From contig CAYLIV010000012.1 in the NCBI GenBank assembly GCA_964384055.1, forward strand, positions 1,635 through 65,634: a DNA stretch of 64,000 nt, written 5' to 3'. The DNA comes from an uncultured Fibrobacteraceae bacterium (lineage in GTDB: Bacteria > Krumholzibacteriota > Krumholzibacteriia > LZORAL124-64-63). Below, piece by piece: positions 7,137 through 52,681 of this stretch. Position 1 is the first letter of the stretch, and every line of letters starts with the position of its first letter. The position numbers and the translations under genes were made by a program. A model generated the notes under the pieces. It did no database searches. It saw nothing but the letters and a program-made list of their open reading frames with translations, and was not told where the DNA came from.

Positions 7137-7263
7137 CCGACCGCCTGCTTCCGTACGGTGTCGAGGCGCGCGGTACGACGGCGGCTTCCTGGTCCGCCGC
7201 ATCCGTCCGGTCGTCCTGGCGGCGGCTGTAGACGACGTCCGACTCCACGCGACGCGAAAATCA

Positions 7264-7272: not shown

Positions 7273-7313
7273 CGAACGCGAGGACAACCGTGGCGGCAAC
7301 CGGGGAGGTACTC

Positions 7314-7943
7314 GTGTTTCTGCAGTTACGTTCCGCTCGGGGATGGCCGGGCGCGCCGGTGTTCCGGTTGCTGATCGGCCTGGCCGCCGCCGTCTCGATG
7401 GCCTGCGGTACGACGGCGTTGGCCCAGGTCGGTTGCGACGAACTCGCACCGCTCGACGCCGTGCCCGCCGCGCAGATCTGTGCCGGCTTCAGCTTTGACG
7501 GCGCACCATATGTCGCGCACAACGCGGAAGAGCTGCAGGTAGTCGTCAACGGGGGCTATACCACATACACCGATCGCGGTTTCATCGAGGCGGTCTTCCA
7601 GAACTACACCGTGGATCTGGGCAGTCCGGTCGGGGCGATGCTGAGCCTGTTCAACCAGGGCGAGACGGCCAACGCGGTGGACCTGTACGGGGAGCTCGAC
7701 GTGCCCGGCACGGTACCGATTGCCGATTGGACGGGCAGCGGCCTGGCGCGTTCCTTCGTGACCGGCTTCGCGACGGAGGTCCAGTTCCAGGAACTGTGCT
7801 TCTACGGCAGCGTCCTGATCATGTCGGGCGAAGACGAGGCGCTGGCCAGCGCCCGCTGCCTGGGCGAAGCGATCTGCGACTTGATCTACACCACGCCGTC
7901 GGCGACCTGTCCCTGGGGGAAGGCGAAGACGGTTTTCCATTAG
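7314..7943 (+). CDS. Secreted DUF6599-like protein with short C-terminal WxxxKxxFH motif
   Basis: RBS GGGGAGG then GTG; signal peptide ending TTALA-Q; core VVNGGYTTYTDRGF aligns with IINGGWELFATYGF (17862) and YINGGAELFLEFGF (47547). Confidence 0.62.
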   Translation: MFLQLRSARGWPGAPVFRLLIGLAAAVSMACGTTALAQVGCDELAPLDAVPAAQICAGFSFDGAPYVAHNAEELQVVVNGGYTTYTDRGFIEAVFQNYTVDLGSPVGAMLSLFNQGETANAVDLYGELDVPGTVPIADWTGSGLARSFVTGFATEVQFQELCFYGSVLIMSGEDEALASARCLGEAICDLIYTTPSATCPWGKAKTVFH

Positions 7944-8029
7944 CGGGTACCTGGCGAGAGGACGACTCTGCATCCAGAAACACGTCGATTCCGGCGACCG
8001 GCAGATCTACCAGACGGAGGGAATTTGGT

Positions 8030-9535
8030 ATGAGTAACGCGGACAAACCCGACTCGAATAACCACCAGCCGGCCGCGGACGAGCCCCGCCCGGTCACCCA
8101 TCACGACAATCTACGACCAGGCGCATGGAAGGATGGCGCGCCCTCGCGACGCGAGTTCCTCGGCTATACCGCGCTGGGAGCGGCCGGCCTGATCATGGGG
8201 CCGCGTCTGCTGGCGCCCGAACAGGCCCATGCCGGCCCGGGTCGCAGCCGCCGCGCCCAGAACGCCAAGATCGTCCGCGCCCATCATCCCGACGCGACCA
8301 GCCATATGAACACGGTGCACCAGGAGCCGGTCGACGACATGGTGCACGCCGCGATCCGGGAACTGACCGGCATCGGCGACACCGCCGCGGCCTGGGCGAG
8401 CCTCTTTCCCGATCTCACCGTGAGCAAGAAGATCGCCATCAAGATCAATCTCGCCTGCGGCGACGTGCCGACCCATCCCCAGGTGATCAACGCCATCATC
8501 GACGGCATCCTGATGGTCGACATCGGTGGGCAGACATTGCCCGAGGAGAACATCATCGTCTGGGATCTGGACAACGCCTTCCTGTGCGCGCAGACCGGTT
8601 ACGTGCCGAACTGGGGGGGACCTGGCGTGCAGTACGTGGGCACCGACCATCCGAGCGTCGGCTTCGACATGTTGTACGCCTTTCCCATCAGTCATCCCGA
8701 CGATTCGACGACCTACCACCATCCGTCACGGATCCTCACCCAGCACTGCGACTACCTGATCAACGCCGCGGTGATCAAGGACCACAGCGACTCCGAGGTG
8801 ACGCTCTGCCTGAAGAACCACTACGGGTCCTTCGACAACATCGCCATCAACGAGTTGCACCAGCACTGGTACTACGGCGACGGTCATGAACGCGGCGAGC
8901 CGGAGCTGAACCGGGTTCTGCGCGATGAACTCGGCGACAAGACGGTGCTGTACCTCATCGACGCCACCCTGGGGCTGTACGACGGCGGACCCGGCTACAT
9001 ACCACCCTGGCACACGCCGCCCAACTGGGCCTACAACAGCCTGCTGGCGGGCTTCGATCCGGTGGCCATCGACCGGATCGGGACCGAGAAGCTCACCGCG
9101 GAACGGCTGCAGCACGGGATCGAAACGCCGCTGGACCCGAGCCACGTGCGTTTCGCGGCCCAGCCGCCATACGAACTGGGTACGGACGATCTGGCGGAGA
9201 TCGATCTGGTCGAGATCGATGCGTCGACGGCCGTGCAGCCGGACGCGATCGGCGTACGATCGGTGGCGCTGCTGGCGCCGTATCCCAACCCGACACAGTC
9301 GTCGAGCACGGTGCGCTTCCGCTGCGGGACGGCAACCGAGGCCGACTTGCGGATCGTCGATGTGCGCGGCCGGCAGATACGGCAGCTGGCAACCGGCGCC
9401 TACGCTCCGGGTACGCATCGTTTCCTGTGGGACGGGCGCGACGACGGCGGCCGCGCCGTGCCGAGCGGTGTGTATTTCTGTTTGCTCGATTCGCAGGTCG
9501 GAGTGCAGAGACGGCGGGTCACGCTGGTGCGTTAG
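8030..9535 (+). CDS. Tat-exported DUF362 protein with FlgD-Ig/T9SS-like C-terminal domain
   Basis: RBS GGAGG; SRREFLG twin-arginine motif; KIN, INAAVIKDH, LKNHYG, D...GGP, DPVAID; C-terminal YPNP...WDGRDDGGRAVPSGVYF. Confidence 0.85.
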   Translation: MSNADKPDSNNHQPAADEPRPVTHHDNLRPGAWKDGAPSRREFLGYTALGAAGLIMGPRLLAPEQAHAGPGRSRRAQNAKIVRAHHPDATSHMNTVHQEPVDDMVHAAIRELTGIGDTAAAWASLFPDLTVSKKIAIKINLACGDVPTHPQVINAIIDGILMVDIGGQTLPEENIIVWDLDNAFLCAQTGYVPNWGGPGVQYVGTDHPSVGFDMLYAFPISHPDDSTTYHHPSRILTQHCDYLINAAVIKDHSDSEVTLCLKNHYGSFDNIAINELHQHWYYGDGHERGEPELNRVLRDELGDKTVLYLIDATLGLYDGGPGYIPPWHTPPNWAYNSLLAGFDPVAIDRIGTEKLTAERLQHGIETPLDPSHVRFAAQPPYELGTDDLAEIDLVEIDASTAVQPDAIGVRSVALLAPYPNPTQSSSTVRFRCGTATEADLRIVDVRGRQIRQLATGAYAPGTHRFLWDGRDDGGRAVPSGVYFCLLDSQVGVQRRRVTLVR

Positions 9536-9604: not shown

Positions 9605-10981
9605 TCACCGCATGACCGTCAGCAGACGGCGCCGCACCTGGCTGCCGGTCTGCAGCCGCACGACGTACACACCGGTCGGCACCTTGCGGCCGGCGTCATC
9701 CTTGCCGTCCCAGGGTACGGTGGACGGTTCAGCGGCGTAGCTTCCGTGCGCCACCCGACGGACGACCCTGCCGCGCAGATCGACGATCTGGATGGCTGCT
9801 TCACCGGCGATCGCCAGCTGGAAGTGCAGGGTGGTCCCGTCCCGGAAGGGATTGGGCGTGTTGGGGCTCAGGGCGAGGTGGCGCGGTGCCGGCGGCGGCG
9901 GATCGGGATCATCGCCGGGGATGACCGGGTCGGCGGTCACCAGAGTCATCTGCGACGGATCGCCGACGCCCAGTTCGAATGGCGCGGCCGCCGCTTCCTC
10001 GATCCACGGACAGGGCTTTTCCGCGTAGCTCGCCGCAGTGCGCTGGGCGTTGATGGTATCCCGCGCCCAGTAGTCGTTGGTCACCGGATCGGTACTGACC
10101 AGCAGGGTATTGGGCGTCTGCTCGGGATAGAGGTCCCATCTCTGCGGCAGCGCATTCGGGCCGCCCGTGAAGGTGCCGCGCAGACAATCGGTGACCACCA
10201 GGCAGGTACGGTCCTTGATGCTGGCGTGGTTGTTGAGGGCCAGCATGCCGGGAATATCGCCGCACAAGCTCGAGGGCGTACACGAGCCGTAATGGTTCTT
10301 GAGAGCGACGGAGATCTGGTTGAGCGCGTTGTTGTGGCTCTTCAGGACCGGAATATTTATCAAGTAGTCGCAGTCCAGCAGGGTGCGGGACAGCTCGTAT
10401 TGCCCGTAGGGGAACTCGCCGGATCCGACCGCGTCGTTGTCGCCGGTCAGGGTGGGGCAGGCGCTGCCGAAACAGAAATCCTCCTGCGCGTAAGCGAAGC
10501 GCGTGATGTCGTGGTTGTCGAAGACGATCACGTGGCTCACGTCGTAACTACCGCCGAGCATCAGCGACAGACCCGAAACCACCCCGCGCACCACTTCCGG
10601 TCGCGTGTACGTGGGCCCGAGGGTGTTGACCTTGATGGCGATGGTCGAGGCGGCGTGCAGCCCGGGAAAGAGGGAAGCGAAGGCCTCGCCTGTGTCGTCG
10701 AGCTGGGTGAGCAGCCGGACCCCGTTGTGAATCGTGGCCTCGACCTGGTCGCGATCGATGACGGGCTCGTGACCGCCGAGCGCGGGATCGTGACAGAACA
10801 CGATACGCCCGGGCAAGCGGTTGCCGGCACCGTGCGGAGCGAGTCCGTCGAAGCGCGCCAGATGCCTGGCCATGGCAGGCGTCCCGGCGGCGGCCATGGC
10901 GCCCAGGGCGGAGAGCTTGATGAATGTCCGCCGGCTGGCGTAGAACCCGGAGAAGAAGCCGGCGTCGGTGTCGTGTTTCAT
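9605..10981 (-). CDS. Tat-exported DUF362 protein with FlgD-Ig/T9SS-like C-terminal domain
   Basis: SRRTFIK; KVN, INIPVLKSH, LKNHYG, GGP, TDPV; C-terminal PNPF...WDGKDDAGRKVPTGVY. Confidence 0.85.
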   Translation of the reverse strand: MKHDTDAGFFSGFYASRRTFIKLSALGAMAAAGTPAMARHLARFDGLAPHGAGNRLPGRIVFCHDPALGGHEPVIDRDQVEATIHNGVRLLTQLDDTGEAFASLFPGLHAASTIAIKVNTLGPTYTRPEVVRGVVSGLSLMLGGSYDVSHVIVFDNHDITRFAYAQEDFCFGSACPTLTGDNDAVGSGEFPYGQYELSRTLLDCDYLINIPVLKSHNNALNQISVALKNHYGSCTPSSLCGDIPGMLALNNHASIKDRTCLVVTDCLRGTFTGGPNALPQRWDLYPEQTPNTLLVSTDPVTNDYWARDTINAQRTAASYAEKPCPWIEEAAAAPFELGVGDPSQMTLVTADPVIPGDDPDPPPPAPRHLALSPNTPNPFRDGTTLHFQLAIAGEAAIQIVDLRGRVVRRVAHGSYAAEPSTVPWDGKDDAGRKVPTGVYVVRLQTGSQVRRRLLTVMR

Positions 10982-11007: not shown

Positions 11008-12387
11008 CTACCGTGCCACTACCAGTCGCTGGCTTCTGACCAGTCGTCCTACCTGCAAGCGGGCGAAGTAGACACCGGTCGGTACGGCTCGCCCGTGGGC
11101 ATCCTTGCCGTCCCAGGACAGGCTGCTGTATCCCGCCGGGAAGCCGTGGCTGACCAGGTGCCGCACGAGTCGGCCGCGCAGATCGACGATCTGGACCGTG
11201 GCATCGTCGGCGGCGGCGAGCCGGAAGCGCAAGGTCGTGCGGTCGCTGAACGGATTGGGCGCGTTGGGTGCCAGGAAGGTGCCGCCCACCAGCAGGCCCG
11301 GCTCCTCCTCGACCCCGGTCGCATCATCATACAGGATCGTCATCTGGTGCGGATCGCTGACGCCGAGAAAGTACGGCTCTGCCGACGCCTGCTCGATCCA
11401 GGGACACGGCTTGGGGTTCCAGCCGTGGGCTGCGCGCTGCGCGTTGATCATGTCCCTCGCCCAGTACTCGTTGGTCACCGGATCGGTGGTCACCAGCAGG
11501 GTGTTGGGCGTCTCCTCGGGATAGAGGTTCCAGTCCATGGGCGGCGTGCTCGGGCCGCCGTTGAAAGTTCCGCGGATGCCGTCGGTGAGCACCAGTACCG
11601 TCTTGGGCTTGATATACTGATCCGTGTTGAGGGTCAGCATGGCGTTGATGTTGCCGCACATGCTCGACGGCGTGCACGAACCGTAATGGTTCTTCATGGC
11701 CACCGTGATCTGGTTGTTGCCGTCGCTGTGGCTCTTCAGGGCGGGTATGTTGATCGCGTAGTCGCAATCGATGAGGTACTGACTGAGCTCGTAGATGCCG
11801 TAGGGAAAGTAGTCCGAATTCCACGCGTTGTTCCCGCCGCTCAGCGTCGGGCAATTCCCGTTGAAGGTGAAACGTTCGGGCGTGTATCCGCGGTTGGAGA
11901 CCGGATCGCGGTCGTAGATGACGACATTGCTCACGTCATAGGTGCCGCCGAGCATCCGGGACAGGCCCGAGACCACGCCGCGCGCCACTTCCCAGCGCGA
12001 GAAGCAGGTACCGATGCAGTTGACCTTGATGGCGATGGTCGAACCGGCGTGCAGTCCGGGAAACAGCGATTCGAAGGCGAGATCCGTGCCGCTTTGCTGG
12101 GTCAGCAGTTCCACGCTGCGGAACACCGCGGCCTCGACGGCATCCACGTCGGGAGTGCCGTGGCCGTTCATGTCCGTGTCGTGGCAGATGACGATCCGAC
12201 CAGGTAACGTGTTGCTGCGACTGGCTTTCGGGTTTTGGCCGTCGAACTGGGCGAGATGCCGGGCCATGGCCGGGGCGCCCGCCATGACCATGGCGCCCAG
12301 GGCCGAGAGCTTGATGAACTGCCGCCGATCGGGGTAGAAACCCGAAAAAAAGCTCGTCGAGTTATTCCGCGTGTCGCTTTTCGCCAT
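11008..12387 (-). CDS. Tat-exported DUF362 protein with FlgD-Ig/T9SS-like C-terminal domain (tandem paralogue of 9605-10981)
   Basis: DRRQFIK; KVN, INIPALKSH, MKNHYG, DGIRGTFNGGP; C-terminal PNPF...WDGKDAHGRAVPTGVYF. Confidence 0.85.
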   Translation of the reverse strand: MAKSDTRNNSTSFFSGFYPDRRQFIKLSALGAMVMAGAPAMARHLAQFDGQNPKASRSNTLPGRIVICHDTDMNGHGTPDVDAVEAAVFRSVELLTQQSGTDLAFESLFPGLHAGSTIAIKVNCIGTCFSRWEVARGVVSGLSRMLGGTYDVSNVVIYDRDPVSNRGYTPERFTFNGNCPTLSGGNNAWNSDYFPYGIYELSQYLIDCDYAINIPALKSHSDGNNQITVAMKNHYGSCTPSSMCGNINAMLTLNTDQYIKPKTVLVLTDGIRGTFNGGPSTPPMDWNLYPEETPNTLLVTTDPVTNEYWARDMINAQRAAHGWNPKPCPWIEQASAEPYFLGVSDPHQMTILYDDATGVEEEPGLLVGGTFLAPNAPNPFSDRTTLRFRLAAADDATVQIVDLRGRLVRHLVSHGFPAGYSSLSWDGKDAHGRAVPTGVYFARLQVGRLVRSQRLVVAR

Positions 12388-12549: not shown

Positions 12550-15500
12550 CTAGCCCCGGATCTGCAAACGCAGGCGAATATCGTGGTCCGTGATCCACGC
12601 GGCGCCGTCGTCTCGGGATCGACTCCAGCCGTACTGCAACTTCACCGAGAAATTCCGCTGCGGGCGGACGCTGACCGTCGCCGTCAGCGCCTGCTTGCGC
12701 GAGTTGTCGCTGCCGGCGGTGACGCCGGGCGAACGGTCTTCTGCGCTGGACCAGGTGAGCGAACCGCCCAGGTTGGCGTCGAGCTGCCAGCGCTCGCGAC
12801 GCCAGGTGATCCGGGCCTGGGGGCTCCAGAGGTTTTCGCGCTGCCCGACCTGGCCGGTCCAGGAGTCGTTGCGCTGCGCTTCCAGGGCCACGAAGGTGAG
12901 CAGACCGCCGCCCCAGGTCTGATCCCACTGTCCGAAGAAACGCCGGCGTTCGAGCCGGTTGAAGAAGGACTCGCTGTCGCTGCCGATGGCCCGCACGGTC
13001 ACGAGTCCGCCGCGCGGTCGGATCTCCAGTCGACTTTCGAGTTGCCGGCTGTCGCTGTCGGTGGTCAAGCCTTCCTGGACCAGCGAGCCGGATTCCATTT
13101 GCCAGCGTTCGATCAGCCGCACGCGCGAGAAGAGCTGCACTCTGGTTTCGAAGACGTCGCTGCGCGATCGGTTGCGTCGCGACACGGCATCCGCCGCGCC
13201 GAACAGGTTGCCGGTCGCCGGCTGCGCGATCCCCGGTTCACCGTTCTCGTTGTCGGTCACGCCGATGTCCCAGCGTAGCGAGAGGCGTGACAGCTGCTTC
13301 GACAGGCGCCCGGGATAGAAGTGCATCGTGGTCAGCAGCACGCGATTGGTGGCGAAACCGCCGCTGCCACCGCCCGGATACCAGAACAGGTTGCGGTCGG
13401 CCTCGTAACGCAGGTAGGCGTCGAGGCTCGCGTGCGGCTGCGACTGCAGGGTGGCGTCGACCTCCTGGAAGCGGCGCAGATCGCGCGCCGTAGCGCTTCC
13501 GGACTGGAAAGTGCGGCTGTCCTCGAACGCGACGTTCCAGGACAGGGGATTGCCGGCCGATCCGTTGAGGCGTACGAACGCATGGTTCGTGCTGCGCCGC
13601 AGGCCGCCGTCGACGCGCGGGATGCCGGCACTGTCCTCGTCGTCGGTCGCAAAATCGCGATCGCTGCGCTGGAAGAAGGCGCGCAACCACAACCGGCGAA
13701 TGCCCAGGGCAGCCAGTCGTCGCCGGTCGGGACTGAGTTCCAGCTCGGCGCGGCTGACCCATTTTTCGCGGCTGGCGCCCGCGGCGTCGATGTCCACGCG
13801 TCCGCGTTTCACCTCCAGGTTCGGCCAGCCCGAGCGTCGCCAGCGTACCGTGCCCATCAAGGTCGATTCCTCTCCACGGCCCGTACCCGGCTCGGTCTGC
13901 GTGCCGGCAGCGAACACATCGCCCGCCGCCACCTGGTCCGACGCCGAGCGGTCCCATTCGATTTCCGCCTGGAGCTGCTGGTTCACATTCCACAGGCCGC
14001 GCGCTCGCGACTGCTCGCGCAACCTGCCCAGCAGCGTGCGGCGATCCTCGAAGGAACGATAGTCCGCACCCAGGTCCCGGTGCCGCGCCGAGAGTTCGAG
14101 GCCGCGGTAGCGGCCTTGCACGCCGAGGCTCGAGGCGCGACCGGGATTCTCGTTCGCCGATCCGCCGCCGGCAGAGGCGGCTGTCTGGCTCACGGCCATT
14201 TCCGGGGTCAGGCGCAGCAGGTAACGATCGTCTTTCCACTCCAGGCGCGCGTTCAGATCCGCAGTCGTGACGTCGCTGCCGTCCGCGTCCGTCCAGCGGG
14301 TGGCGCCGGCGCCGGCATAGACCTGATCGCTGGGCGAAATCCCCACCTGGGCGGCACTGATCATGCTGTCGTCTTCGTCGTCGTTCGACGAGGCGCGCAG
14401 CCCCACCTCGTACAGATATTCGACCTCGATCACCGAGTCCTCGTCGAGCAGCACATGTTCGAACAGGACGAACAGGCCGCTGGTGTGAATCAATGAATAG
14501 TCGACGCCCGCCTGCAGGAGCTCCCGATCGATGATTATGCGTTCGGACCCCGGGACCAGATCGCGGTGACCGAGCTGGTAGGTGTTGCGCGTCGCCTGAT
14601 AGCTGTAGTTGAAGGTATACACGTTGGTGGACGGATCGGCGTACACCTCGTCGGGAAACGGCTGCGCCGCCGGCAAGGCGAGCATGCCGGTGATGGGGCT
14701 GAAGCGATGCGGATCGACCAGGCCGTCGCCGTCGGTGTCAAGGCCGAACGACTCGAGATAGGGTGTGCCCGAGACGTCGGCGATCGCGCCGTTGGTATCG
14801 ACCAGGGCGACCGCCAGCGAACCCGGCACCGGGTCCATGGCGATCCAGTAGTGGTTACGCAGGGCGAGGTGGGTCAGCTCGATCTCCGCCTCGGCGCCGG
14901 GCGGTGCGCCCGTGTTGTGCACCGCGACCAGGGCGTGATCGGCTGCCAGCGCCGCGGCGAGCACCAGCGAGTCGCCGCGCGGTCCGATCACGTAGTCGAC
15001 GTTGGGCCGCAGTCGATCCCAGGCGCCCGCGACACCGGCCAGTTCGCCGTGAATCGTGTTGGCGTTGTCGGAGAGGTCGTCCTTGTCGTCGCGATAGACA
15101 GACGCCTCGCGCAGATCCGCGGCGGTCCAGGCGGCGGGTAACGGAAACACCGCGCCGGCTGCGTAATCGACGTCCCGGGTGGAGGTCTCGACAAGTTGGT
15201 TGCCGCCCAGGAAAACGTCGCGTCCCGGTTTGGTGCGTCGCCGTCCGACCCAGGCGTCGGCGGCCACCCGGCGGCGACGTGAGCCGGCCAGCCGTTCGCC
15301 CAGCTCGGCGCGCACGCGACCGCCACGCAGGCCGGTACCCGGGGTCAGGTCGGTGTTGAAGGGCGTCATGTCGATCTCGCCGACACTGACGGTCCGCAAC
15401 ACGTCAGTGCGGCGGCCACGAAAGGTCAGCTGGTAGGCGGCGTTGTCCGGATCGGTGCTGTCGTAAAAACCGCTGAGGGTGCGGTCCTCGCTCACCTGCC

Positions 15501-17861: not shown

Positions 17862-18470
17862 TCAGCTCGTGATTTCCTGAACGATGTGCTGCGCCATCAG
17901 GGTCATGACCGTCAGCGTATCGTTGGCGAAGCTGCTGAACAGCAACGTGACCACGTACTGGTCCTGGCGCAAATGGACGGTGTAACTGCCCAGGTCCTGT
18001 TGCGAGTAGGCCTCGGTCCCGATGCCGTTCATGGCCGTCCATGAGCCCTCGATCGTCAGTTCCTCCAGCACGGCGGCCGCATTGTCGACATCGGTCTGGT
18101 CGTAGATCTGGATCGTGCCATTGGCGGTGTCGGTGCCGATGGTGCCGGTGTAACTCTGTTCGACCATCTCCTGGAAGCCGTAGGTGGCGAACAGCTCCCA
18201 GCCGCCGTTGATGATGTCGTTGAGTTCCGTATCGTTGGTGGCGATGCTGGGCTCGCCCGTCTGGGCCAAGCTGGCGTCGCCGGGTGGGAGAAAATCTCGA
18301 GGGTGTTTCGTCGTCGATCCGTCTTCGCTGCAGCCGGCGGCCAGTAGCACCAACATCACCAGCAGCACCGAAGACATGCGCCGCAGACTCGCGGCGCCGG
18401 AGCGGCGGTCGCTTTTCTCTCGGATCCGGTCGGGTCGGCTCACGGGTTCGCTGTGGATACCTGGCGTCAT
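17862..18470 (-). CDS. DUF6599-like lipoprotein
   Basis: Lipobox LAAG-C; IINGGWELFATYGF, IQIYDQ. The start may be the ATG at 18377. Confidence 0.65.
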   Translation of the reverse strand: MTPGIHSEPVSRPDRIREKSDRRSGAASLRRMSSVLLVMLVLLAAGCSEDGSTTKHPRDFLPPGDASLAQTGEPSIATNDTELNDIINGGWELFATYGFQEMVEQSYTGTIGTDTANGTIQIYDQTDVDNAAAVLEELTIEGSWTAMNGIGTEAYSQQDLGSYTVHLRQDQYVVTLLFSSFANDTLTVMTLMAQHIVQEITS

Positions 18471-41899: not shown

Positions 41900-44545
41900 T
41901 TATTTTAACAACGTCATCTTCCGGGTTTCTGTGTGCGTACCGGCTTTCAGCTCGTACACGTAGACACCGCTGGCGACTTCCCGGTCAGCCGCGTCCCGCC
42001 CGTTCCACCGGAACTCGTACGAGCCCGCCGGTTGCCGTTCCTGGACCAGGCACCGCACGAGGCGTCCCGCGGCGTCATGGATGTTCAACGTTACCGGCGT
42101 TTCGCGCGACAGGTGATAGCGTATCGTCGTCGCCGCGTTGAAGGGATTGGGCTGGTTCTGTTCCAGCCGCGCCGAAACGACCGCCGGCGGTTGCTCGTCC
42201 ACCGCGACGACCTGGTACACCAGATCCCGTTCGTACACGCCGTTGCCGTAGGTGGACACCCGCAAGTGGCGGCTGGTCGGCGAGATGGTCAGGTCCATGG
42301 CCACGACTGCATCGGGCAGGCCGGTGCTGTATTCGTACCAGTTCGCACCACCGTCGTCGGTGTAGTACACGCCGATGTCGTTGCCCACGTACACGTGATC
42401 GGACTGCCGGGGATCGACGATCACCGACGAGGTCGGCACATCGGGCAACGCGGCGCCGATATCCTGCCAGCTGCCGCCGCCGTCGGTCGTCCGGAACACG
42501 TGCGAGGTGCCGAAACCGGAGAAGGTTACGTACGCCGTCTGGTCGTCGTCGGGATCGATGGCCAGGCCCACCGGGTAGCGGTCGGGCAGCGATCCGGTGA
42601 TGTCGGCGAAGGTGGCGCCGCCGTCGGTGGTGACGAAGACACCGGCGTGGGAGTAGACCGGCGCCGTCGTCACGTACACGATGTTCGCGTCGTTACGCGA
42701 CACCTCCAGGGCGATGGCGGGATTCCCATCGAGAGCCAGGCCGCCGTTGGTGCCGTTCCAGTTGAAGCCGCCGTTCGTCGATTTGGCGACCTTGCTGCCC
42801 GCGGCGTAGATGGTTTCGCCGCCCAGCAGCCCGGTACCGGTGGCGAAGGGCGCGATGAAACCCGGTTCGCCGATCAGGTTCGAGGGCGGTTCGACGGAGA
42901 ACCAGCTGTCGCCGGAGTCGAACGACTTGAACATCTGCAGATACTGCGCCGAACCATAGAGGTAGGAATCGTTGTTGGGGTCGATCGCCGTGCAGCTGCC
43001 GTCGCCGCCGATGGCCCGGAACCAGGCGTTGGTACCGAAATAGATGGCCGTCGAGTTATCCTGCATCCCGCCCAGGGCCAGGTGCGAATCCCGTTGCGAC
43101 GATGAGAAACCCGCGTAGAACTGCTGGCTCTGGTAGCCGCCGTTGCACCCGGAGAAGGTCTCGCCCCCGTCCAGGCTGCGGAACACGCCGCCGTCATTGG
43201 CGAAATAGATTATGTCGGAATCGGTGGGATGGAAGACGATGTCGTGGTGGTCGGCATGGGAATAGTTCGGCGGTCCCTCGGGCCCGCCGGGTTCAGTCTG
43301 GCCGAAGTACCACAACGACCATTCGGATTTCTGGTTCAGACTGTTGCCGCCGGCAGTGGATTTCCAGATATCGATACCCGCGGCCATGACCTGGTTCACG
43401 TCGTCATGCGCGACGGCCACGTCATGGGCGAACCAGCCCTGCCAGCGCGAGTAATCGACGTTGGAACGCAGCTGCCAGGTGTTGCCGCCGTCCAGGGTTC
43501 TGACCAGTCGCGTCCAGTACGAACCCACATCGCCGTTGCCGATACTCGCGTAGACGACGCCGGGCAACGAGGCGCCCACCGCCAGTTGCGCCTTGCCGTC
43601 CCAGCCGGCGGGGATGACGCCGGTCTGGGACATCAGTGACCACGAACCGCCACCGTCGGTCGTGCGGTAGATGCCGGTGCCCGGACTCTGCATGTCGCCG
43701 CAGGCGATGAACACCCGGCTGGTGTCGCCGGGGTCGATGACCAGATCCATGACCATGATAGTGTCGTCGACCTGGGTCCAGCTCGCGCCGCTGTCAGTGG
43801 ATTTGTAGGTGCCCTCGGTCGTGCCGGCCCAGACCGTGTGGGGATTGAGCGGATTGATCCGTACCGCCCAGATGCCCCGCTGCTGCTGGTATGACCAGTC
43901 CAGGCTCTTGGTCCAGGTCATACCGCCGTCGGTCGTCTTCAGGATGCCCATGCCGTAGCTACCGCGCGTGTGCCGCACGGTGATGCCGCCCTGGGTGTCG
44001 TAGTAGCTGTACACTTCGCCGGTACCGATGTACACGGTGTTCGAATCGCCGGGATCGATGGCGATGGTGCTGACACCGAGCACCGGATGGCCGGTCGAAA
44101 CATAATGCCAGGCCGCGGCGCCGACCCCGCCCGTATAACTTCGCCAGAGACCGCCGCTTGCCGCCCCGGCGTACACGGTCAGCGGATTCTGGGGATTGAG
44201 TGCGATCGCCAGCGTACGTCCGCCGATGTTGTGGGGACCGAGTTCCTGCCACGGCTCCTTGGCGCCCGGTCTCTCGGCGCCGCCTTTTTCCCAATCCGCT
44301 CCCAGCGACGCCTTGGAATAGACATAGGCGTCGTAGTGACCCCGCGTCGGCAGGGTCTTGTTCGGATAAGCGCGTTGCGCCGTCCAGAAATCGAACGCGC
44401 CGCGAGCGCCGGAGACTCTCTCGTCTGCACGGTGATGGTGTGCGGCCCGCGAATCGGGTTGCGCCGGATGGTGCCGCTGGACCACGAGGATGGATCCGAT
44501 CGACACGACAGTCAACGACACCAGCAGAAACACGAATTTTTTCAT
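41900..44545 (-). CDS. Secreted Vps10/sortilin-like BNR-repeat beta-propeller protein with FlgD-Ig CTD
   Basis: W.ELGP.NIGGR, multiple Asp-box repeats (S/T.DGG.TW), HADHH, ANDGGV, GGMQDN, LPDVP; PNPFNAATT CTD. Confidence 0.88.
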   Translation of the reverse strand: MKKFVFLLVSLTVVSIGSILVVQRHHPAQPDSRAAHHHRADERVSGARGAFDFWTAQRAYPNKTLPTRGHYDAYVYSKASLGADWEKGGAERPGAKEPWQELGPHNIGGRTLAIALNPQNPLTVYAGAASGGLWRSYTGGVGAAAWHYVSTGHPVLGVSTIAIDPGDSNTVYIGTGEVYSYYDTQGGITVRHTRGSYGMGILKTTDGGMTWTKSLDWSYQQQRGIWAVRINPLNPHTVWAGTTEGTYKSTDSGASWTQVDDTIMVMDLVIDPGDTSRVFIACGDMQSPGTGIYRTTDGGGSWSLMSQTGVIPAGWDGKAQLAVGASLPGVVYASIGNGDVGSYWTRLVRTLDGGNTWQLRSNVDYSRWQGWFAHDVAVAHDDVNQVMAAGIDIWKSTAGGNSLNQKSEWSLWYFGQTEPGGPEGPPNYSHADHHDIVFHPTDSDIIYFANDGGVFRSLDGGETFSGCNGGYQSQQFYAGFSSSQRDSHLALGGMQDNSTAIYFGTNAWFRAIGGDGSCTAIDPNNDSYLYGSAQYLQMFKSFDSGDSWFSVEPPSNLIGEPGFIAPFATGTGLLGGETIYAAGSKVAKSTNGGFNWNGTNGGLALDGNPAIALEVSRNDANIVYVTTAPVYSHAGVFVTTDGGATFADITGSLPDRYPVGLAIDPDDDQTAYVTFSGFGTSHVFRTTDGGGSWQDIGAALPDVPTSSVIVDPRQSDHVYVGNDIGVYYTDDGGANWYEYSTGLPDAVVAMDLTISPTSRHLRVSTYGNGVYERDLVYQVVAVDEQPPAVVSARLEQNQPNPFNAATTIRYHLSRETPVTLNIHDAAGRLVRCLVQERQPAGSYEFRWNGRDAADREVASGVYVYELKAGTHTETRKMTLLK

Positions 44546-44786
44546 GGTAGTCACCGCCAGGAGAGCGAGTTGCGTCGGGGAGACGAACAGCATGAGTATA
44601 CAGGAAAAGTTCGGTCGGGTACAGGGCCCGGCGGGGCGGTGGCGCTCGATCCAACCGCAACTCGACCGTTCGGCGGGCAAGAGAAAATGCGTGACCACCA
44701 CCGCATGGGCATTCTAGTATCTGTCCTCTGACCTGATCTCTGGCCGCCGTGCGGTCGAGTGTCACCACCGGCTCTGGGAGATACTT

Positions 44787-47546: not shown

Positions 47547-48458
47547 ATGCGGATCCCAAACCGGTCGCGCGCCGTGACGATGTTGCTCGCGATGATGTCG
47601 CTCGTGATCGGTCTGACCGCCGGCTGTGCAACGAACCCGCCCGCCCTGCCGGCCACCGTGACGGCCGGCGGACCGGACCTGCACTTCGAGCCGCACGGTC
47701 TGTACGGGTACATCAACGGCGGCGCGGAGCTTTTCCTCGAATTCGGATTCACGTCGCTGGACGTCCGGAATTACCGGGTGACAACCGCTGCCGAGGACGG
47801 TGCGAACCCGCGACAGATCGACGTCGAGACGTACCGTATGGCCGACCCGCCCGCCGCGCAGGGTATCTATCTCGCCAAGTGCGGCGATGAGAACCCCGCC
47901 GTCGACGTCGTGGCGCGCAACACGGGCAATCCCTACCAGATAACGGCGGTGGCCGGCTCGCTCTTTCTCCAGGTGAACAACTTCAGCGGCGATGCCGCCT
48001 GTCTGCCAGCCATGACTGCCCTGGCCAACGCGGCGCTGGCGGCCGAAAACGAAACGCCGCCGCTCGCTATCTGGCGGCACCTGCCGTCAGCGGGACGGGT
48101 CGCCGGCAGCGAGTTCCTGTTCCGCGGCCGCTTCGGGCTCGAGCCGGTATTCACCTTCGGCCCCGGCGATGTGTTGCAGATCGAGGGCCAGGCTCTCGGC
48201 GCGGGGGCGAGTTACGATAACGGCGACGGCTCGTTCTGTCGCCGGCTGACTGTCGAGTATCCCGACGCGGTTGCCGCCCGCCGGGCGCTGGTGCATCTGC
48301 AGGACAACCTCGACGCCTACCTCGAGGTGATCGACCGGAACGCCGCCGGACTGATCTTCAAGGATTACGCGGGACAATACGGCATCGTGCGACACGTTGA
48401 CCGGCGGCTCGACATGGCCGTCCGGCTTACCGATGTCCCGCCGCCGTTGACACCGTGA
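47547..48458 (+). CDS. DUF6599-like lipoprotein
   Basis: RBS GGAGAGG; lipobox LTAG-C; LYGYINGGAELFLEFGF, YRMADPPAAQGIY. Confidence 0.75.
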   Translation: MRIPNRSRAVTMLLAMMSLVIGLTAGCATNPPALPATVTAGGPDLHFEPHGLYGYINGGAELFLEFGFTSLDVRNYRVTTAAEDGANPRQIDVETYRMADPPAAQGIYLAKCGDENPAVDVVARNTGNPYQITAVAGSLFLQVNNFSGDAACLPAMTALANAALAAENETPPLAIWRHLPSAGRVAGSEFLFRGRFGLEPVFTFGPGDVLQIEGQALGAGASYDNGDGSFCRRLTVEYPDAVAARRALVHLQDNLDAYLEVIDRNAAGLIFKDYAGQYGIVRHVDRRLDMAVRLTDVPPPLTP

Positions 48459-48691: not shown

Positions 48692-49321
48692 ATGTCGCAC
48701 AAGATCCTCATGGTATGTGTTGCTGTCGCGAGTCTGCTGGTGTTCGCACCAGCCTGGGCCCAGGTCATCAACGAGATACTTGCCGATCCCGATGCAGTGA
48801 ACGGCGACGCGAACGGTGATGGTGTCGTCGACGTTGTGGAGGACGAGTTCGTGGAGATCGTCAACGCCACCGGCGACGCACTGAATATCGGTGGCTGGAC
48901 ACTCGCTGACGGCTTCGAACTGCGCCACACCTTCCCGGCCGGCACGGTGGTGCTGGACAACTGCTCGATCATCGTTTTCGGCGGCGGTACGCCGACGGGC
49001 GATTTCGGCGATGCGGAAGCGCAGGTCGCGTCGACCGGCAGCCTGGGACTGAACAATACCGGCGATACGGTGACCCTGAACGACGGCGCATTCGATGTGG
49101 CGAGCTACACCTACGATGTCGAGGGCGGCGATAACCAGTCGCTGACCCGTGATCCCGACATCACCGGTGGCGAACCCCTCGTCAAGCACAGCGAAGCCGC
49201 CGGATCCGGCGGTACGCTCTTCTCCGCCGGCGTCATGGTTGACGGTAGTCCCTTTGTCGGCTGCGGCGAAGTGACCGCCATGCCCATCGAGTGGGCGGCC
49301 CTGAAAGTTCATTTCCGCTGA
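48692..49321 (+). CDS. Secreted lamin-tail-domain (LTD) protein with short C-terminal WxxxKxxFR motif
   Basis: Signal peptide AWA-Q; VINEILADP, DEFVEIVN, IGGWTL.D, LNNTGDTVTL. Confidence 0.8.
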   Translation: MSHKILMVCVAVASLLVFAPAWAQVINEILADPDAVNGDANGDGVVDVVEDEFVEIVNATGDALNIGGWTLADGFELRHTFPAGTVVLDNCSIIVFGGGTPTGDFGDAEAQVASTGSLGLNNTGDTVTLNDGAFDVASYTYDVEGGDNQSLTRDPDITGGEPLVKHSEAAGSGGTLFSAGVMVDGSPFVGCGEVTAMPIEWAALKVHFR

Positions 49322-49327
49322 TCGGGG

Positions 49328-52300
49328 TCAATGACCCCGGTCTTCGGGATAACCGCCGATGGTCGGCCAGGCGACCGGTTCCTGCTCGATCTTCTCCAGC
49401 AGATATTCCACCGCCTTTTCGATCTGCGCGTCCCGGCCGTCGATCACCTCGTGGGGCAACTCGTCCACGTCGATGTCGGGATCGACACCATGATTCTCGA
49501 CCGTCCACTCGCCGTCCTTGGTGAAGACGCCGAAGGTGGGTATGGTCACGTTACCGCCGTCGAGCAACTGGATGTAGTGCCGATAGCCGATCAGCCCGCC
49601 CCAGGTCCGTGTGCCGATCACCGGTCCCAGCTCCCAGATCTGGAAGTAGTACGGCAGCGCGTCGCCGCCGCTGCCCGCATAGTGGTTGCTGAGCATGGCC
49701 AGGTGCCCGGCAAAGGCGGTGCCGGGGGTGTGGGCTTCGCGGCCGTAGCGGCTCTTCCAGCCGTGCGCGATCTTCTGACCCATGACGGTCATCATGAAAT
49801 CGGGCACCCAGCCGCCGCCGTTGTAGCGCTCGTCGATGATCAGGCCTTCCTTGCGCAGATTCGGATAGTAACCCTTGGCGAAGGCCTGCATCCCGCCGAT
49901 GGCGGTGTTGGGCAGGTGCAGATAGCCGATCCGCCCGTCCGAAAGCCGCGCCACGCGCCGGCGGTTGTTCTGTACCCATGCCTCGTAGCGCAAACCCGCT
50001 TCCGAACCGATGGGTTCGACGGTCACCTCGCGTGATTCTTCACCGTCGGCGTCGGGGCCGACGGTCAGGACCACCTGCTGACCGACCTTGTTCTCGAGCA
50101 GGCTGAGCGGGTTCATGGGCGCCACGAGCTGCACGCCGTCCACCGCCAGCAGGTAGTCGCCCTCGCTGACGTCGATGCCCGGCCCGAACAGTGGTGTCGT
50201 CTGGTCCCGGTTCCAGTCGCGCTCGGCGAGAATGGCGGCGATCCGGTAGCGATCATCGCCGTCCTCGAGGGCGAAATCACAGCCGAGCAAACCGGTACGC
50301 ACGCGCGCCGCGGACGGTCGCTCGCCCGGGCGGACGTAGGCGTGGCCGGCGTTCAGCTCGCCGAGCAGTTCGCCCAGCAGGTAGCTGAAGTCGGCGCCAT
50401 GCGCGACGTAGGGCAGGAGCTGGGCGTACCGCTTGTACATCTTATCCCAGTCGACCTGGTGCATGTTGGGATCGTAGAAATAGTCCCGCTCGAGACGCCA
50501 GGCGTCGCGGAACATCTGCCTCCACTCGGCGCGCGGATCGATCTTGACCTGCATCTCGCCGGTGCGCAGCGGCTCGCTGGCCGGCTTCTGGTCGGCGGCA
50601 GCGTCGACGATGCCCCAGCTGCCGTTGCTCGTATAGAGGAACTTCTTACCGTCGGCCGACTGGGCAAAGCCGTTGATGCCGGACATGACGGTGCTCTCTT
50701 CGCGCTCCTCCAGATCGAACATCATGATCGACATTCCGCCGTCCTCGCGACTGCCGCCGAGTGTGCGGTTCACGCTGCCGTAGAAGAGCGTGCCGTCGGC
50801 GAAACGGAGGTTGACGTACGCGCCCGGCGGCAGGTCCAGGGCCACGGTGCGCTCGAAAATGCCCTCGACGTCGATGACCAGGGGCTCCGGTTCGTCGTCG
50901 CTCTCCTCGTCGTCCTCAGCGTCTTCGTCATCCTCGCCCTCTTCGCCATCGTCGCCATCGTCGTCAGCGTCGTCGCCGTCTTCGTCGCCGCCTTTATCGT
51001 CGGCGTCGTCCTCGTCACCTTGGCCGTCGATTTCCACCTCGTCGCTCTCGAAGGGGAAGGGGTTCTCCACGTCGGCGCGCAGGGTCAGCAGGTAAATGCC
51101 CTCGCCGTTGGCGTAGGTCGGCTTGATATCGTAGCCGCCGATGGTGGGATTGAAATGGCGATCGGAGGTGAAGAAAAGGTACTTGCCGTCGCTATCGAAG
51201 CAGGGATCGTCGTCGTCGGTGGCCTCGCTGGTCACCTGGTGGGATTCATCGGCGTCGACGTCGTACAGGTGAATGTTGCCGAAGCCGTTCTCGCCGGCCA
51301 TGGCGTAGGCTACCCAGCGGCTGTCGGCGCTCCAGGCGTAGTCTCTGATGGCAGCGATGGGGCTCTCGTCGATCCTGGTCACCTTGCCGCCGTCGATCTC
51401 GACGAGAAACAGCCGGAAGGCGGCGTCGCTGTACAGCAGATACTTGCTGTCGGGCGACCAGGCCAGGCCGATGCGAAAAACGTCGGCGTCGTCGGTTAAC
51501 CGTTTCACCTCGCCCTTGCCGTCGCTCGGGTGGAGGTAGATGTCGTACTCACCGTCGCGGTCGCTGAAGCAGGCGATCCACTTGCCGTCGGGCGACCAGG
51601 CGGGATTGCGTTCGTTGCTGCTGGATGAGCTGGTCAGTGCCCGGACCGCTCCTTTCTCGGCCGGCAGGCTGAACAGGTCGCCGCGCGCCGACATCACGAC
51701 CCGCTTGCCGTCCGGGGCGATGTCGGCGTAGTTGATCCAGCGGCTGACGTCCTTGAACACCGGGCGCGTCAAGGCCAGGTCGCTGTGCAGGGTTACCTCG
51801 ATCTTGCGCGTCTTCTCGTCGGCCAGATCCAGCACGTACAGCCAGCCGCCGTTCTCGTAGACGATGGCCGCGTCGCCCAGGCTGGGGTACTTGACATCGT
51901 ATTGGTTGTGACGCGTTACCTGCCGATGCTCGCCGGTCGTCAGCTCGTAGGCCCAGATCTGTAGTCGACCGGTGCGGTCGCTCGTGTAATAGATCGTCTC
52001 ACCATGCCACATGGGGAAGTTATCCGTGCCGACCCAATCGGTCACCTTCTCGGTGTCGTTGGCGTCGAAATCGTAGATCCACAGATCCTGGGCCATGCCA
52101 CCCTTGTAGCGCTTCCAGGTCCGGTGCTCCCGGGTCATGCGGTTGTAGACGAGTTGCTTGCCGTCGGGTGAATAGCTCGACAGACCACCCTCGTGCAACG
52201 GCAGCGGCGCCGGCAAGCCGCCGGTCAGCGGCACGGTGTACAGCTGGGCGTCGTAGCGCGTGCGACTCCCGCGTTGCGTCTGGAAGCGTACGGCCTTGCC

Positions 52301-52681
52301 GTCCGGTTGCCAGTCGATGACCCGGTCTCTGCCGGGATGCCAGGTCAGGCGCCGCGGTTCGCCGCCGGTGGCGGTGATCACGTAGATGTCGTTGTTGCCG
52401 TCGTAGTTGCCGCTGAAGGCGATGTGCTTCCCGTCCGGACTGAATTTGGGTTCGGTCTGGAAGCCGAGGGAACTGGTCAGGCGTCGCGCCTCGCCGCCGC
52501 CGGCCGGCACGGTCCAGAGGTTGCCGGCGTAGGTGAAGACGATCCGATCGCCGTGGATGTCCGGATAGCGTAGCAAGCGCATGTCTTCGGGATCGAGGGG
52601 ATCGTACGCGTCCTTGGCCAAGGTCACGCCGGCCGCGAGGAACAGGAGCGGCAACAGGAACAGCAACAACAAGCGCTTCAT
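49328..52681 (-). CDS. Tricorn-like protease (peptidase S41) with signal peptide
   Basis: LLRYPDIHGD.IVF, PD40 repeats, GELNAGH, PDZ domain, IGYLHLP, IDERYNGGG, GSGGD, GTRTWGG, ENHGVDPD. Confidence 0.95.
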   Translation of the reverse strand: MKRLLLLFLLPLLFLAAGVTLAKDAYDPLDPEDMRLLRYPDIHGDRIVFTYAGNLWTVPAGGGEARRLTSSLGFQTEPKFSPDGKHIAFSGNYDGNNDIYVITATGGEPRRLTWHPGRDRVIDWQPDGKAVRFQTQRGSRTRYDAQLYTVPLTGGLPAPLPLHEGGLSSYSPDGKQLVYNRMTREHRTWKRYKGGMAQDLWIYDFDANDTEKVTDWVGTDNFPMWHGETIYYTSDRTGRLQIWAYELTTGEHRQVTRHNQYDVKYPSLGDAAIVYENGGWLYVLDLADEKTRKIEVTLHSDLALTRPVFKDVSRWINYADIAPDGKRVVMSARGDLFSLPAEKGAVRALTSSSSSNERNPAWSPDGKWIACFSDRDGEYDIYLHPSDGKGEVKRLTDDADVFRIGLAWSPDSKYLLYSDAAFRLFLVEIDGGKVTRIDESPIAAIRDYAWSADSRWVAYAMAGENGFGNIHLYDVDADESHQVTSEATDDDDPCFDSDGKYLFFTSDRHFNPTIGGYDIKPTYANGEGIYLLTLRADVENPFPFESDEVEIDGQGDEDDADDKGGDEDGDDADDDGDDGEEGEDDEDAEDDEESDDEPEPLVIDVEGIFERTVALDLPPGAYVNLRFADGTLFYGSVNRTLGGSREDGGMSIMMFDLEEREESTVMSGINGFAQSADGKKFLYTSNGSWGIVDAAADQKPASEPLRTGEMQVKIDPRAEWRQMFRDAWRLERDYFYDPNMHQVDWDKMYKRYAQLLPYVAHGADFSYLLGELLGELNAGHAYVRPGERPSAARVRTGLLGCDFALEDGDDRYRIAAILAERDWNRDQTTPLFGPGIDVSEGDYLLAVDGVQLVAPMNPLSLLENKVGQQVVLTVGPDADGEESREVTVEPIGSEAGLRYEAWVQNNRRRVARLSDGRIGYLHLPNTAIGGMQAFAKGYYPNLRKEGLIIDERYNGGGWVPDFMMTVMGQKIAHGWKSRYGREAHTPGTAFAGHLAMLSNHYAGSGGDALPYYFQIWELGPVIGTRTWGGLIGYRHYIQLLDGGNVTIPTFGVFTKDGEWTVENHGVDPDIDVDELPHEVIDGRDAQIEKAVEYLLEKIEQEPVAWPTIGGYPEDRGH

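Follow-up and report, generated by a model that had tools for sequence, protein, structure and literature searches.

Why do two unrelated small secreted proteins, encoded in the same stretch of DNA, end in the same few residues? The stretch, called the window here, is 64,000 nucleotides of contig CAYLIV010000012.1 (assembly GCA_964384055.1) from an uncultured Fibrobacteraceae bacterium. One protein (protein 1) appears to be a divergent member of the DUF6599 superfamily. The other contains a lamin-tail domain (LTD) and is called the LTD protein. Both end in a core of nine residues after a short linker, and we call this ending the tail. Bacteria use C-terminal sorting signals to settle which of their exported proteins arrive at the cell surface or remain there. 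The initial annotation gave the two endings the motif W-x3-K-x2-F-[HR] and proposed that they might be a sorting signal. We find that the window tails are diverged members, by descent, of a conserved C-terminal tail family, which explains the shared ending of the two proteins. The genes and tails are placed as follows.

7290..7943, forward strand: gene for protein 1 (P0001, 217 amino acids), an open reading frame (ORF) for a divergent secreted protein of the DUF6599 superfamily.
7290..7424, forward strand: signal peptide region of protein 1, with ...RLLIGLAAAVSMACGTTALA before the cleavage site and QV after it; signal peptidase I (SPase-I) type with no canonical lipobox, as read from the sequence.
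7890-7943, forward strand: tail copy 1 and its stop; 7890-7940 reads TTPSATCPWGKAKTVFH, with TAG at 7941-7943.
7914-7940, forward strand: core of copy 1, WGKAKTVFH, after the linker TTPSATCP, with T-P at -16/-15.
48692..49321, forward strand: gene for the LTD protein (P0002, 209 amino acids), an ORF with its lamin-tail domain at about 48764-49114.
48692-48760, forward strand: signal peptide of the LTD protein, MSHKILMVCVAVASLLVFAPAWA followed by QV.
49268-49321, forward strand: tail copy 2 and its stop; 49268-49318 reads EVTAMPIEWAALKVHFR, with TGA at 49319-49321.
49292-49318, forward strand: core of copy 2, WAALKVHFR, after the linker EVTAMPIE, with P at -12 and, at -19, the final Cys of the domain.

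The two tails are in register, as first claimed. Counted from the C terminus, W is at -9, K at -5 and F at -2 in both, the last residue is basic, and the stop codon follows immediately. Both linkers contain Pro. A strict regular expression matched 2 of the 548 six-frame ORFs of at least 60 amino acids, and these were protein 1 and the LTD protein. The equivalent DNA pattern had two matches in the window against 0.00 expected from 100 shuffles. In the window the motif is thus commoner than chance would give.

This pattern was defined after the fact, so independent data were sought elsewhere. The DNA scan fixed W-G-x-[hydrophobic]-K-x-x-Y-R-stop and left the other positions free. All five matches in a viral collection were true tails. 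Contigs from one genome per species contained about 120 true tails among the 128 matches listed, mostly from Candidatus Eisenbacteria. The true tails listed from these contigs end ORFs of 200-500 amino acids. A scan of metagenomes with F at -2, in which -6 was left free, retrieved about 80 true tails among 123 matches. Position -6 was always I, L, V or M in these F-variant tails, and some of them were on contigs with low guanine-plus-cytosine (GC) content.

Several positions that the pattern did not specify are conserved. [ST] is at -10 in 111 and P is at -15 in 72 of the 123 tails listed. A hydrophobic residue at -3, [VT] at -16 and [ERK] at -13 are conserved too. The family consensus is [VT]-P-x-[ERK]-x2-[ST]-W-G-x-[ILVM]-K-x-[LMI]-[YF]-R-COOH. 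The Pro of the linker is at -15, -17 or -12, and a Cys is often found at -18 to -21. A Cys occurs 9-12 residues before the W in 42% of carriers, compared with 1-3% per position in controls. Neighboring tails that were not seeds of the scan contain natural variants, with F at -2, H at -1, S or T at -8, or two-residue extensions. These independent scans place the window tails in the same family as the 'TWGxIKxxYR'-type tails of uncultured bacteria related to the Fibrobacteres-Chlorobi-Bacteroidetes (FCB) group, a resemblance that had been pointed out at the outset. The motif as first written is real but too narrow. It omits G at -8, the hydrophobic positions -6 and -3, [ST] at -10 and the Pro linker out to -16. 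F at -2 is a natural variant, but Y is commoner across the family, and the window copies are atypical.

The window tails were scored with a profile built from independent tails found outside the window. Positions fixed by a scan were taken only from tails found without the pattern. An earlier position-specific scoring matrix was dropped as unfair, since five of its columns were fixed by the search pattern itself. The LTD protein tail scored 13.2 bits and the protein 1 tail scored 6.0 bits. They ranked first and second of 823 ORF termini, and the next best terminus scored -0.6. Among 82,446 internal 16-mers, none scored as high as the LTD protein tail and four scored as high as the protein 1 tail. 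On the positions that the initial annotation had not used, the two tails ranked 30th and 105th of 823. Taken by itself, the sequence match is therefore modest. What decides in favor of the window tails is the orthologues of both proteins, which have near-canonical tails at the aligned position.

The LTD protein scores 54.5 bits (E=1.8e-14) with the Pfam Lamin tail domain model (PF00932), above the cutoff of 34.3. It has 533 homologues, of which 120 were examined. Homologues from other organisms end in ...SWGRAKANYR, ...AWSAVKSLYR, ...GWTRLKWRYR, ...PWGAVKRLYRRCEP and ...LWGNVKQLYRRRIP directly after the LTD. The first four of these endings belong to proteins that are 50-60% identical and end at the aligned place. 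Homologues with a tail at the aligned position are P0008, P0013, P0059, P0065 and P0066. About 20 other homologues have a PEP-CTERM anchor at the tail site, and some have a long C-terminal domain (CTD). Five LTD homologues from outside the window (P0047, P0049, P0050, P0076 and P0036) have another short ending, V(V)[FY]LPL[VI][KQ]K-COOH, directly after the LTD. It may be another unrecognized type of C-terminal tail.

Protein 1 has more distant family ties. It had no Pfam match at E<=0.1, so the gathering score of DUF6599 (PF20244) was not reached, and an indexed search retrieved no homologues. An exhaustive phmmer search retrieved 52 relatives. The distant ones are lipoproteins that score above the Pfam DUF6599 cutoff and have no tail. 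Protein 1 had been called DUF6599-like, and the label stands because phmmer ties it to lipoproteins that pass the cutoff, although protein 1 itself falls below it. This transitive homology supports reading protein 1 as a divergent relative of DUF6599 proteins rather than a member of the model. A fold search retrieved no Protein Data Bank (PDB) match with E<1e-3. Several metagenome assemblies have the same gene call. Starting instead from the ATG at 7263 would give a protein of 226 amino acids.

The closer relatives of protein 1 are about 200 amino acids long and have SPase-I type signal peptides. They end in ...SWGSIRAGFR, ...SWGDLKTRFR, ...SWGNIKRGFRP, ...TWSDIKASYR, ...TWSALKNLYR and ...SWGSIKAVYR. 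In the alignment of protein 1 with 14 relatives (A3), the tail comes after the final conserved helix, and all 15 sequences share W209. The tail of protein 1 aligns with ...TPVxxxSWGxIKxx[FY]R in the 14 relatives, and their signal peptides are equivalent to that of protein 1. The best match to protein 1 is P0126 (46% identity), which reaches 18 bits against the DUF6599 model and is subthreshold. It has a CTD of the FlgD_ig type used by secretion systems of type IX (T9SS), at 42 bits. This CTD is joined exactly past the 'WG' of the tail, with ...LTPVEVSGWG followed by LELLPPYPNP.... It looks as if recombination had put the CTD in place of the final seven residues of an ancestral tail. In homologues, then, the place of the tail is taken by PEP-CTERM, a T9SS-type CTD or a lipobox.

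A further module was seen in the same two families. P0010, P0030, P0147 and P0160, all from outside the window, have a C-terminal domain of about 100 residues ('VPVEL..F...V.L.W.T..E....GF...R...') after LTD or DUF6599-like domains. In P0147 and P0160 this domain is followed by a tail-like ending (..SWGDMKASFGD and ..SWGRLKAAFRAGWAP, respectively), so the tail is able to sit behind another C-terminal module.

Across the family, the stop codon follows directly on 143 of 146 occurrences, after 2 more residues on two others and after 13 on one. No truly internal occurrence was found in 1.2 million six-frame residues. The nucleotides downstream of the stop are not conserved, and the information lies at codon positions 1 and 2, with the third free. 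The tail is therefore selected as a peptide rather than as a DNA repeat, and a repeated DNA element at the 3' ends of genes was ruled out on these grounds.

Both window carriers have Sec-type signal peptides, and hidden Markov model (HMM) scans found no long FlgD/T9SS CTD on either. Both had been claimed before, and the predicted structures agree. In the family, a signal-peptide-like N terminus was present in all 124 complete carriers and in 175 of 353 control ORFs (P=3e-31). The controls were ORFs of the same loci judged by the same lenient heuristic. Enrichment for signal peptides, which had been suggested as a check, is thus seen among these carriers.

The tail is modular. Its carriers fall into 76 unrelated BLAST clusters, with many different domains of extracellular type. 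The LTD is their commonest domain (10/124), followed by beta-helices (7), NHL and other propellers, CHRD domains and proteases. Further carriers have NCBIfam 'choice-of-anchor' L, J or V domains or are relatives of proteins that depend on PEP-CTERM, rhombosortase or myxosortase. Tail loci contain about one additional tail per 35 kb, which extrapolates to about 100 tails per genome. Carriers have a median length of 243 amino acids, compared with 690 for ORFs with a CTD-like end.

The 119 genome loci listed include 47 from Eisenbacteria/Eiseniibacteriota, 6 from 'uncultured Fibrobacteraceae', 5 from Krumholzibacteri(i)a and 2 from Gemmatimonadota. Zixiibacteriota, Latescibacterota, Effluviviaceae and Hyd24-12 are represented by one locus each, and about 45 are unclassified. 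A few of the 119 have odd labels and are probably mis-binned, and 3-5 are chance matches. The scan pattern (AAG, CGN, TGA) favors high-GC genomes, so this taxonomic range is a lower bound. Ten metagenome contigs (L169, L197, L235, L150, L160, L226, L230, L231, L245 and L249) encode a subfamily of 150-250 amino acids with the recurrent ending ...VSSV[RK]RTWGS[IL]KAMFR. Some of these contigs are low in GC (33-41%), and the tail is therefore not restricted to high-GC lineages. Five IMG/VR contigs classed as viral (L001-L005) encode tail-bearing secreted proteins. L001 contains two tandem tail genes. L002 contains an integrase (PHROG E=5e-53), and L004 and L005 have PHROG matches whose function is unassigned in PHROG. 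Phages or prophages of tail-bearing bacteria may use the host tail.

On balance, and with moderate confidence, we infer that the tail works as a linear signal for envelope sorting or surface targeting, read at the free C terminus by a dedicated component. In its strictly C-terminal position, its restriction to proteins with signal peptides, its spread over 76 clusters and its swaps with other modules, the tail behaves like a sorting signal, as first suggested. In the layout of the family, the last Cys of the folded domain is followed by a short Pro linker ([VT]-P-x-[ERK]-x2) and then by [ST]-W-G-x-[ILVM]-K-x-[LMI]-[YF]-R-COOH. After Sec export and cleavage of the signal peptide, a dedicated periplasmic or outer-membrane component would read the free C-terminal peptide. 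The peptide is probably a short helix capped by Ser or Thr, with W, K, Y/F and R displayed on one face. The reader would bring its cargo, for the most part small proteins with one domain, to the outer membrane or to the surface of the cell. The window organism uses the short tail beside the long T9SS-type CTD.

Several observations weigh against a functional signal of this kind. The 119 tail loci contain no recurrent non-carrier family in their neighborhoods, and so no candidate for a partner gene. The helix predicted for the tail has low confidence (predicted local distance difference test [pLDDT] 50-62), and its amphipathicity is not significant as helix or as strand. The taxonomic picture is skewed to high-GC genomes by the codons fixed in the pattern. 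The two window tails score far below canonical tails (22-43 bits) and depart from the consensus at two or three otherwise strongly conserved positions. They may be diverged copies that work poorly or differently.

The rival that survives best is that the tail is a minimal T9SS cargo signal. The T9SS that handles CTDs, or a paralogous SprA/PorV-like component, would then export small proteins across the outer membrane. Every tail lineage is within or adjacent to the FCB group. Tail genomes encode FlgD/T9SS type A CTD proteins, with about ten in the window and such proteins in 15 of 119 tail loci. The long CTD is the other C-terminal signal used by the window organism. In the family of protein 1 the tail and the T9SS-type CTD swap, and in P0126 the graft point is inside the tail. 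The small tail cargo and the larger CTD cargo would suit two signals for one route. Two features of the window bear on this rival:

41900..44701, reverse strand: long FlgD/T9SS type A CTD protein, one example of about ten in the window (TIGR04183, 29.1 bits against a cutoff of 23).
12550-17424, reverse strand: ORF of 1,623 amino acids with no Pfam domain and no PDB sequence match, between the DUF362-CTD genes and a DUF6599 gene.

We consider a minimal T9SS signal unlikely. The characterized T9SS signal is a folded beta-sandwich of about 70-100 residues (PMC4804311), and nothing similar is present in the tail. A WG motif was found upstream of none of 20 CTDs, and this, with the absence of any HMM similarity, rules out a truncated FlgD/T9SS CTD. 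The sole match of the 1,623-residue ORF is to the NCBIfam model of SprA, the T9SS translocon. It covers 73 residues and scores 20 bits against a cutoff of 200, and we rejected the SprA identity on this partial match and the lack of a PDB sequence match.

The next rival is passive retention, in which a basic-aromatic helix would stick to the membrane or to an anionic envelope polymer such as lipopolysaccharide, peptidoglycan or capsule. AlphaFold 2 (AF2) models gave the globular domains of both window carriers a pLDDT of about 96-97, and the LTD protein a mean of 90.9. The signal region of protein 1 was modeled as a helix (residues 22-38). In both carriers a low-confidence linker follows the domain, and then comes a short helix that starts at the Trp and is detached from the domain. 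This helix spans residues 209-216 in protein 1 (pLDDT 50-62) and 201-208 in the LTD protein (pLDDT 56-59). S/T at -10 would fit a helix N-cap, and on a computed helical wheel W, K, Y/F, R and G share one face. The helix in both carriers is consistent with passive retention, and the conserved W, Y/F, K and R are residues typical of interfaces. PBP5 (penicillin-binding protein 5) is the nearest analogue and an established precedent: it is exported by Sec, and an amphipathic helix at its C terminus anchors it to the membrane (PMC2909392).

The core of the tail is only nine residues long. Its hydrophobic moment is 0.33-0.53, compared with 0.41+-0.19 in shuffles, and its mean hydrophobicity is low. 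A generic membrane anchor is therefore unlikely, and a generic amphipathic anchor was rejected because the hydrophobic-moment test was not significant for helix or strand. W-G, K and [YF]-R are near-invariant across phyla and the C terminus is exact, which fits a specific reader of a linear motif.

Passive retention also draws on the alternation of the tail with a lipid anchor in the DUF6599-like family. In the 18 tail-bearing members the signal peptide is of SPase-I type, and true lipoboxes are present in at least 25 of the 33 tail-less members. This alternation is largely one clade-level split. Two tail-less paralogues are encoded in the window:

47547..48458, forward strand: DUF6599 lipoprotein with the lipobox LTAGC (Pfam DUF6599 E=7.5e-16; BLASTP against protein 1 E=0.004).
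17862..18470, reverse strand: second DUF6599 paralogue (Pfam DUF6599 E=1.3e-8).

Tail and lipidation had been proposed as alternative targeting routes. The alternation is real within the DUF6599-like family but is not a general rule. Across diverse carriers a lipobox occurs in 5 of 124, compared with 16 of 175 (odds ratio 0.42, P=0.11), and this depletion is not significant. In three carriers (L090, L113 and L124) a lipobox occurs together with a tail, which speaks against passive retention too, and general mutual exclusion was rejected. Taken together, we hold passive retention to be quite unlikely and prefer a tail that is read as a linear signal.

It is decidedly unlikely, in our judgment, that the family is real while the two window copies are decaying, nonfunctional relics. 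The case for relics is made by the low scores given above and by particular residues. The LTD protein tail has A at -8 in place of G, H at -3 and E at -10, and it keeps L at -6. In the protein 1 tail, -6 is A, -1 is H and -10 is P, and it keeps G at -8 and V at -3. Both tails lack [ST] at -10, and A at -6 is found in none of the about 80 F-variant tails, in which -6 was free. Against decay, W, K and an aromatic residue followed by a basic end are kept in both copies, as are the Pro linker and the exact terminal register. F at -2 and H at -1 are variants that also occur elsewhere, and so are S/T at -8 and A at -6. A at -6 is present in P0008, and H at -1 was seen once outside the window (L110). 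F at -2 is in both window tails and in many relatives of protein 1. Variants of this protein in the population have four or five substitutions nearby and none in the last 17 residues.

The least probable rival is that the tail is a tag for the PDZ domain of a periplasmic S41/tricorn-like C-terminal processing protease, serving maturation or turnover rather than localization. PDZ domains of S41 and HtrA proteases bind free C termini, and such a gene is convergent with a tail gene in the window and in one relative (L251), where the carriers differ. The adjacency is not general (4 weak propeller matches in 239 tail loci), usual PDZ ligands end in a hydrophobic residue rather than Arg, and a degradation tag leaves the replacement of PEP-CTERM, CTD or lipobox on surface-type domains unexplained. 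The gene in the window is the following:

49328..52681, reverse strand: tricorn-like protease with TolB propeller, PDZ and S41 domains (Pfam and NCBIfam), convergent with the LTD gene and 6 bp away.

Contig L251 encodes a phosphorylase 74% identical to the one in the window. Its tricorn-like gene (L251:18587-21943) is convergent with a tail gene (L251:22310-22625). At this syntenic position the protein differs from the LTD protein and has the canonical ending ...SSWGVIKALYK. As a general rule, adjacency to a tricorn/S41-PDZ gene was rejected, as it was found in the window and L251 and not in 239 other tail loci. A dedicated neighboring sortase or protease was rejected too. When 353 neighboring ORFs were clustered, the only recurrent grouping was of proteins joined by the long CTD. 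Shallow metatranscriptomes yielded a single small contig, over the tricorn gene.

The nearest named relatives of the window phosphorylase are from metagenome-assembled genomes (MAGs) of Krumholzibacteriia (70-73% identity). The window organism, which turns up in a number of marine metagenomes, is most likely a marine bacterium resembling Krumholzibacteriota. In the window, DUF362 genes are repeatedly paired with genes of the DUF6599 type. A DUF362 gene (46148-47458) is upstream of the DUF6599 lipoprotein gene, and the gene of protein 1 precedes that of a DUF362 protein with a T9SS-type CTD (8027-9535; FlgD_ig found). Two more DUF362 paralogues, at 9605-10981 and 11008-12387 on the reverse strand, have a Tat-like (twin-arginine translocation) 'SRRTFIKLSALG' signal and an FlgD-type CTD end. 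A Tat signal with a T9SS-type CTD is an unusual combination.

A D-Ala-D-Ala carboxypeptidase of the PBP5/DacA type (Peptidase_S11 and PBP5_C) is encoded at 34437-35657 on the forward strand. It ends in ...EKGNWLDRLFH, whose Trp, Arg and Phe-His resemble the protein 1 tail in flavor but in a different register. It may represent a shortened membrane-anchor helix of the PBP5 kind.

A wider proposal can be put forward tentatively. The tail may be the cargo signal of an undescribed high-capacity sorting system with its own receptor or translocon, and with about 100 substrates per genome by extrapolation, in Eisenbacteria, Krumholzibacteria and allied FCB-group phyla. We regard this as possible rather than probable. 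If it is true, the system reads a free C-terminal peptide of about ten residues on folded periplasmic proteins. Its mode of recognition would differ in kind from that of membrane-embedded sortase-type signals and of the folded T9SS CTD. LPXTG, PEP-CTERM, GlyGly-CTERM and the T9SS CTD were each recognized as signals, and the recognition of each led to its processing machinery.

The tail would mark about 100 proteins per genome, again by extrapolation, in several phyla with few or no cultured members, and current annotation misses it. When whole carriers and tails by themselves were scanned against Pfam and NCBIfam (E<=10), no model matched the tail. A literature search found no description of the motif and no relevant work on sorting signals or the T9SS in Eisenbacteria, Krumholzibacteriota or Zixibacteria. 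A tail profile would label a large part of the 'hypothetical' secreted proteins in the MAGs of these phyla as probable surface or exported proteins. It would also serve as a query for phylogenetic profiling toward the cognate machinery, and the tail itself is a very small candidate targeting tag.

The tail can be compared with four classes of known signals. The first is the sortase-type tripartite signals, which include LPXTG/sortase, PEP-CTERM/exosortase, GlyGly-CTERM/rhombosortase and MYXO-CTERM/myxosortase (PMC3237569, bioRxiv 10.1101/2023.06.07.544157). Like them, the tail is a modular C-terminal extension of Sec-exported proteins, found on many unrelated domains after a low-complexity linker, in many copies per genome and in certain lineages only. 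In LTD homologues it directly replaces PEP-CTERM. Unlike them, it lacks a transmembrane helix and the basic cluster that would come after it, and its core of about ten residues ends the protein. Tail-locus neighborhoods contain no sortase-like gene, and no NCBIfam or Pfam sorting model matches. By the features that define PEP-CTERM, exosortase, rhombosortase and sortase substrates the tail falls outside these types, with nine residues after the linker, no hydrophobic stretch and no NCBIfam match.

The second is the T9SS CTD of type A (TIGR04183/PF18962; FlgD_ig PF13860 form), the folded beta-sandwich described above (PMC4804311). Both signals are C-terminal on signal-peptide proteins of FCB-group bacteria. 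They are co-resident in genomes and interchangeable, as in P0126 and protein 1. The tail differs in being linear, with 10-16 residues, in having no HMM match and in having much smaller carriers. The type A models (TIGR04183/PF18962/PF13860) matched neither the window carriers nor isolated tails at E<=10.

The third is the PBP5 anchor, the C-terminal amphipathic helix of low-molecular-weight PBPs in E. coli (PMC2909392). The tail shares with it a short C-terminal helix, here predicted, on a Sec-exported soluble domain, and aromatic and basic residues. The PBP5 anchor is about twice as long, clearly amphipathic and poorly conserved, whereas the tail core has nine residues, is near-invariant and is not significantly amphipathic. 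PBP5-type anchors are helices of about 15-20 residues with a strong hydrophobic moment, and the helix predicted for the tail has 8-9 residues.

The fourth is the C-terminal beta-signal of outer-membrane proteins (OMPs), which is recognized by BamA/Omp85 (PMC1634882). It is likewise short, at the extreme C terminus, with an aromatic residue near the end. The OMP signal has a terminal aromatic residue, alternating hydrophobics and a beta-barrel carrier, whereas the tail ends in Arg, His or Lys and is carried by soluble domains (LTD, beta-propellers and beta-helices). The basic last residue (H or R in the window) and the soluble carriers rule out an OMP beta-signal. The tail works like a C-terminal sorting signal but lacks the defining features of each known class compared here. 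If dedicated machinery is found for it, the tail would be a new class of sorting signal.

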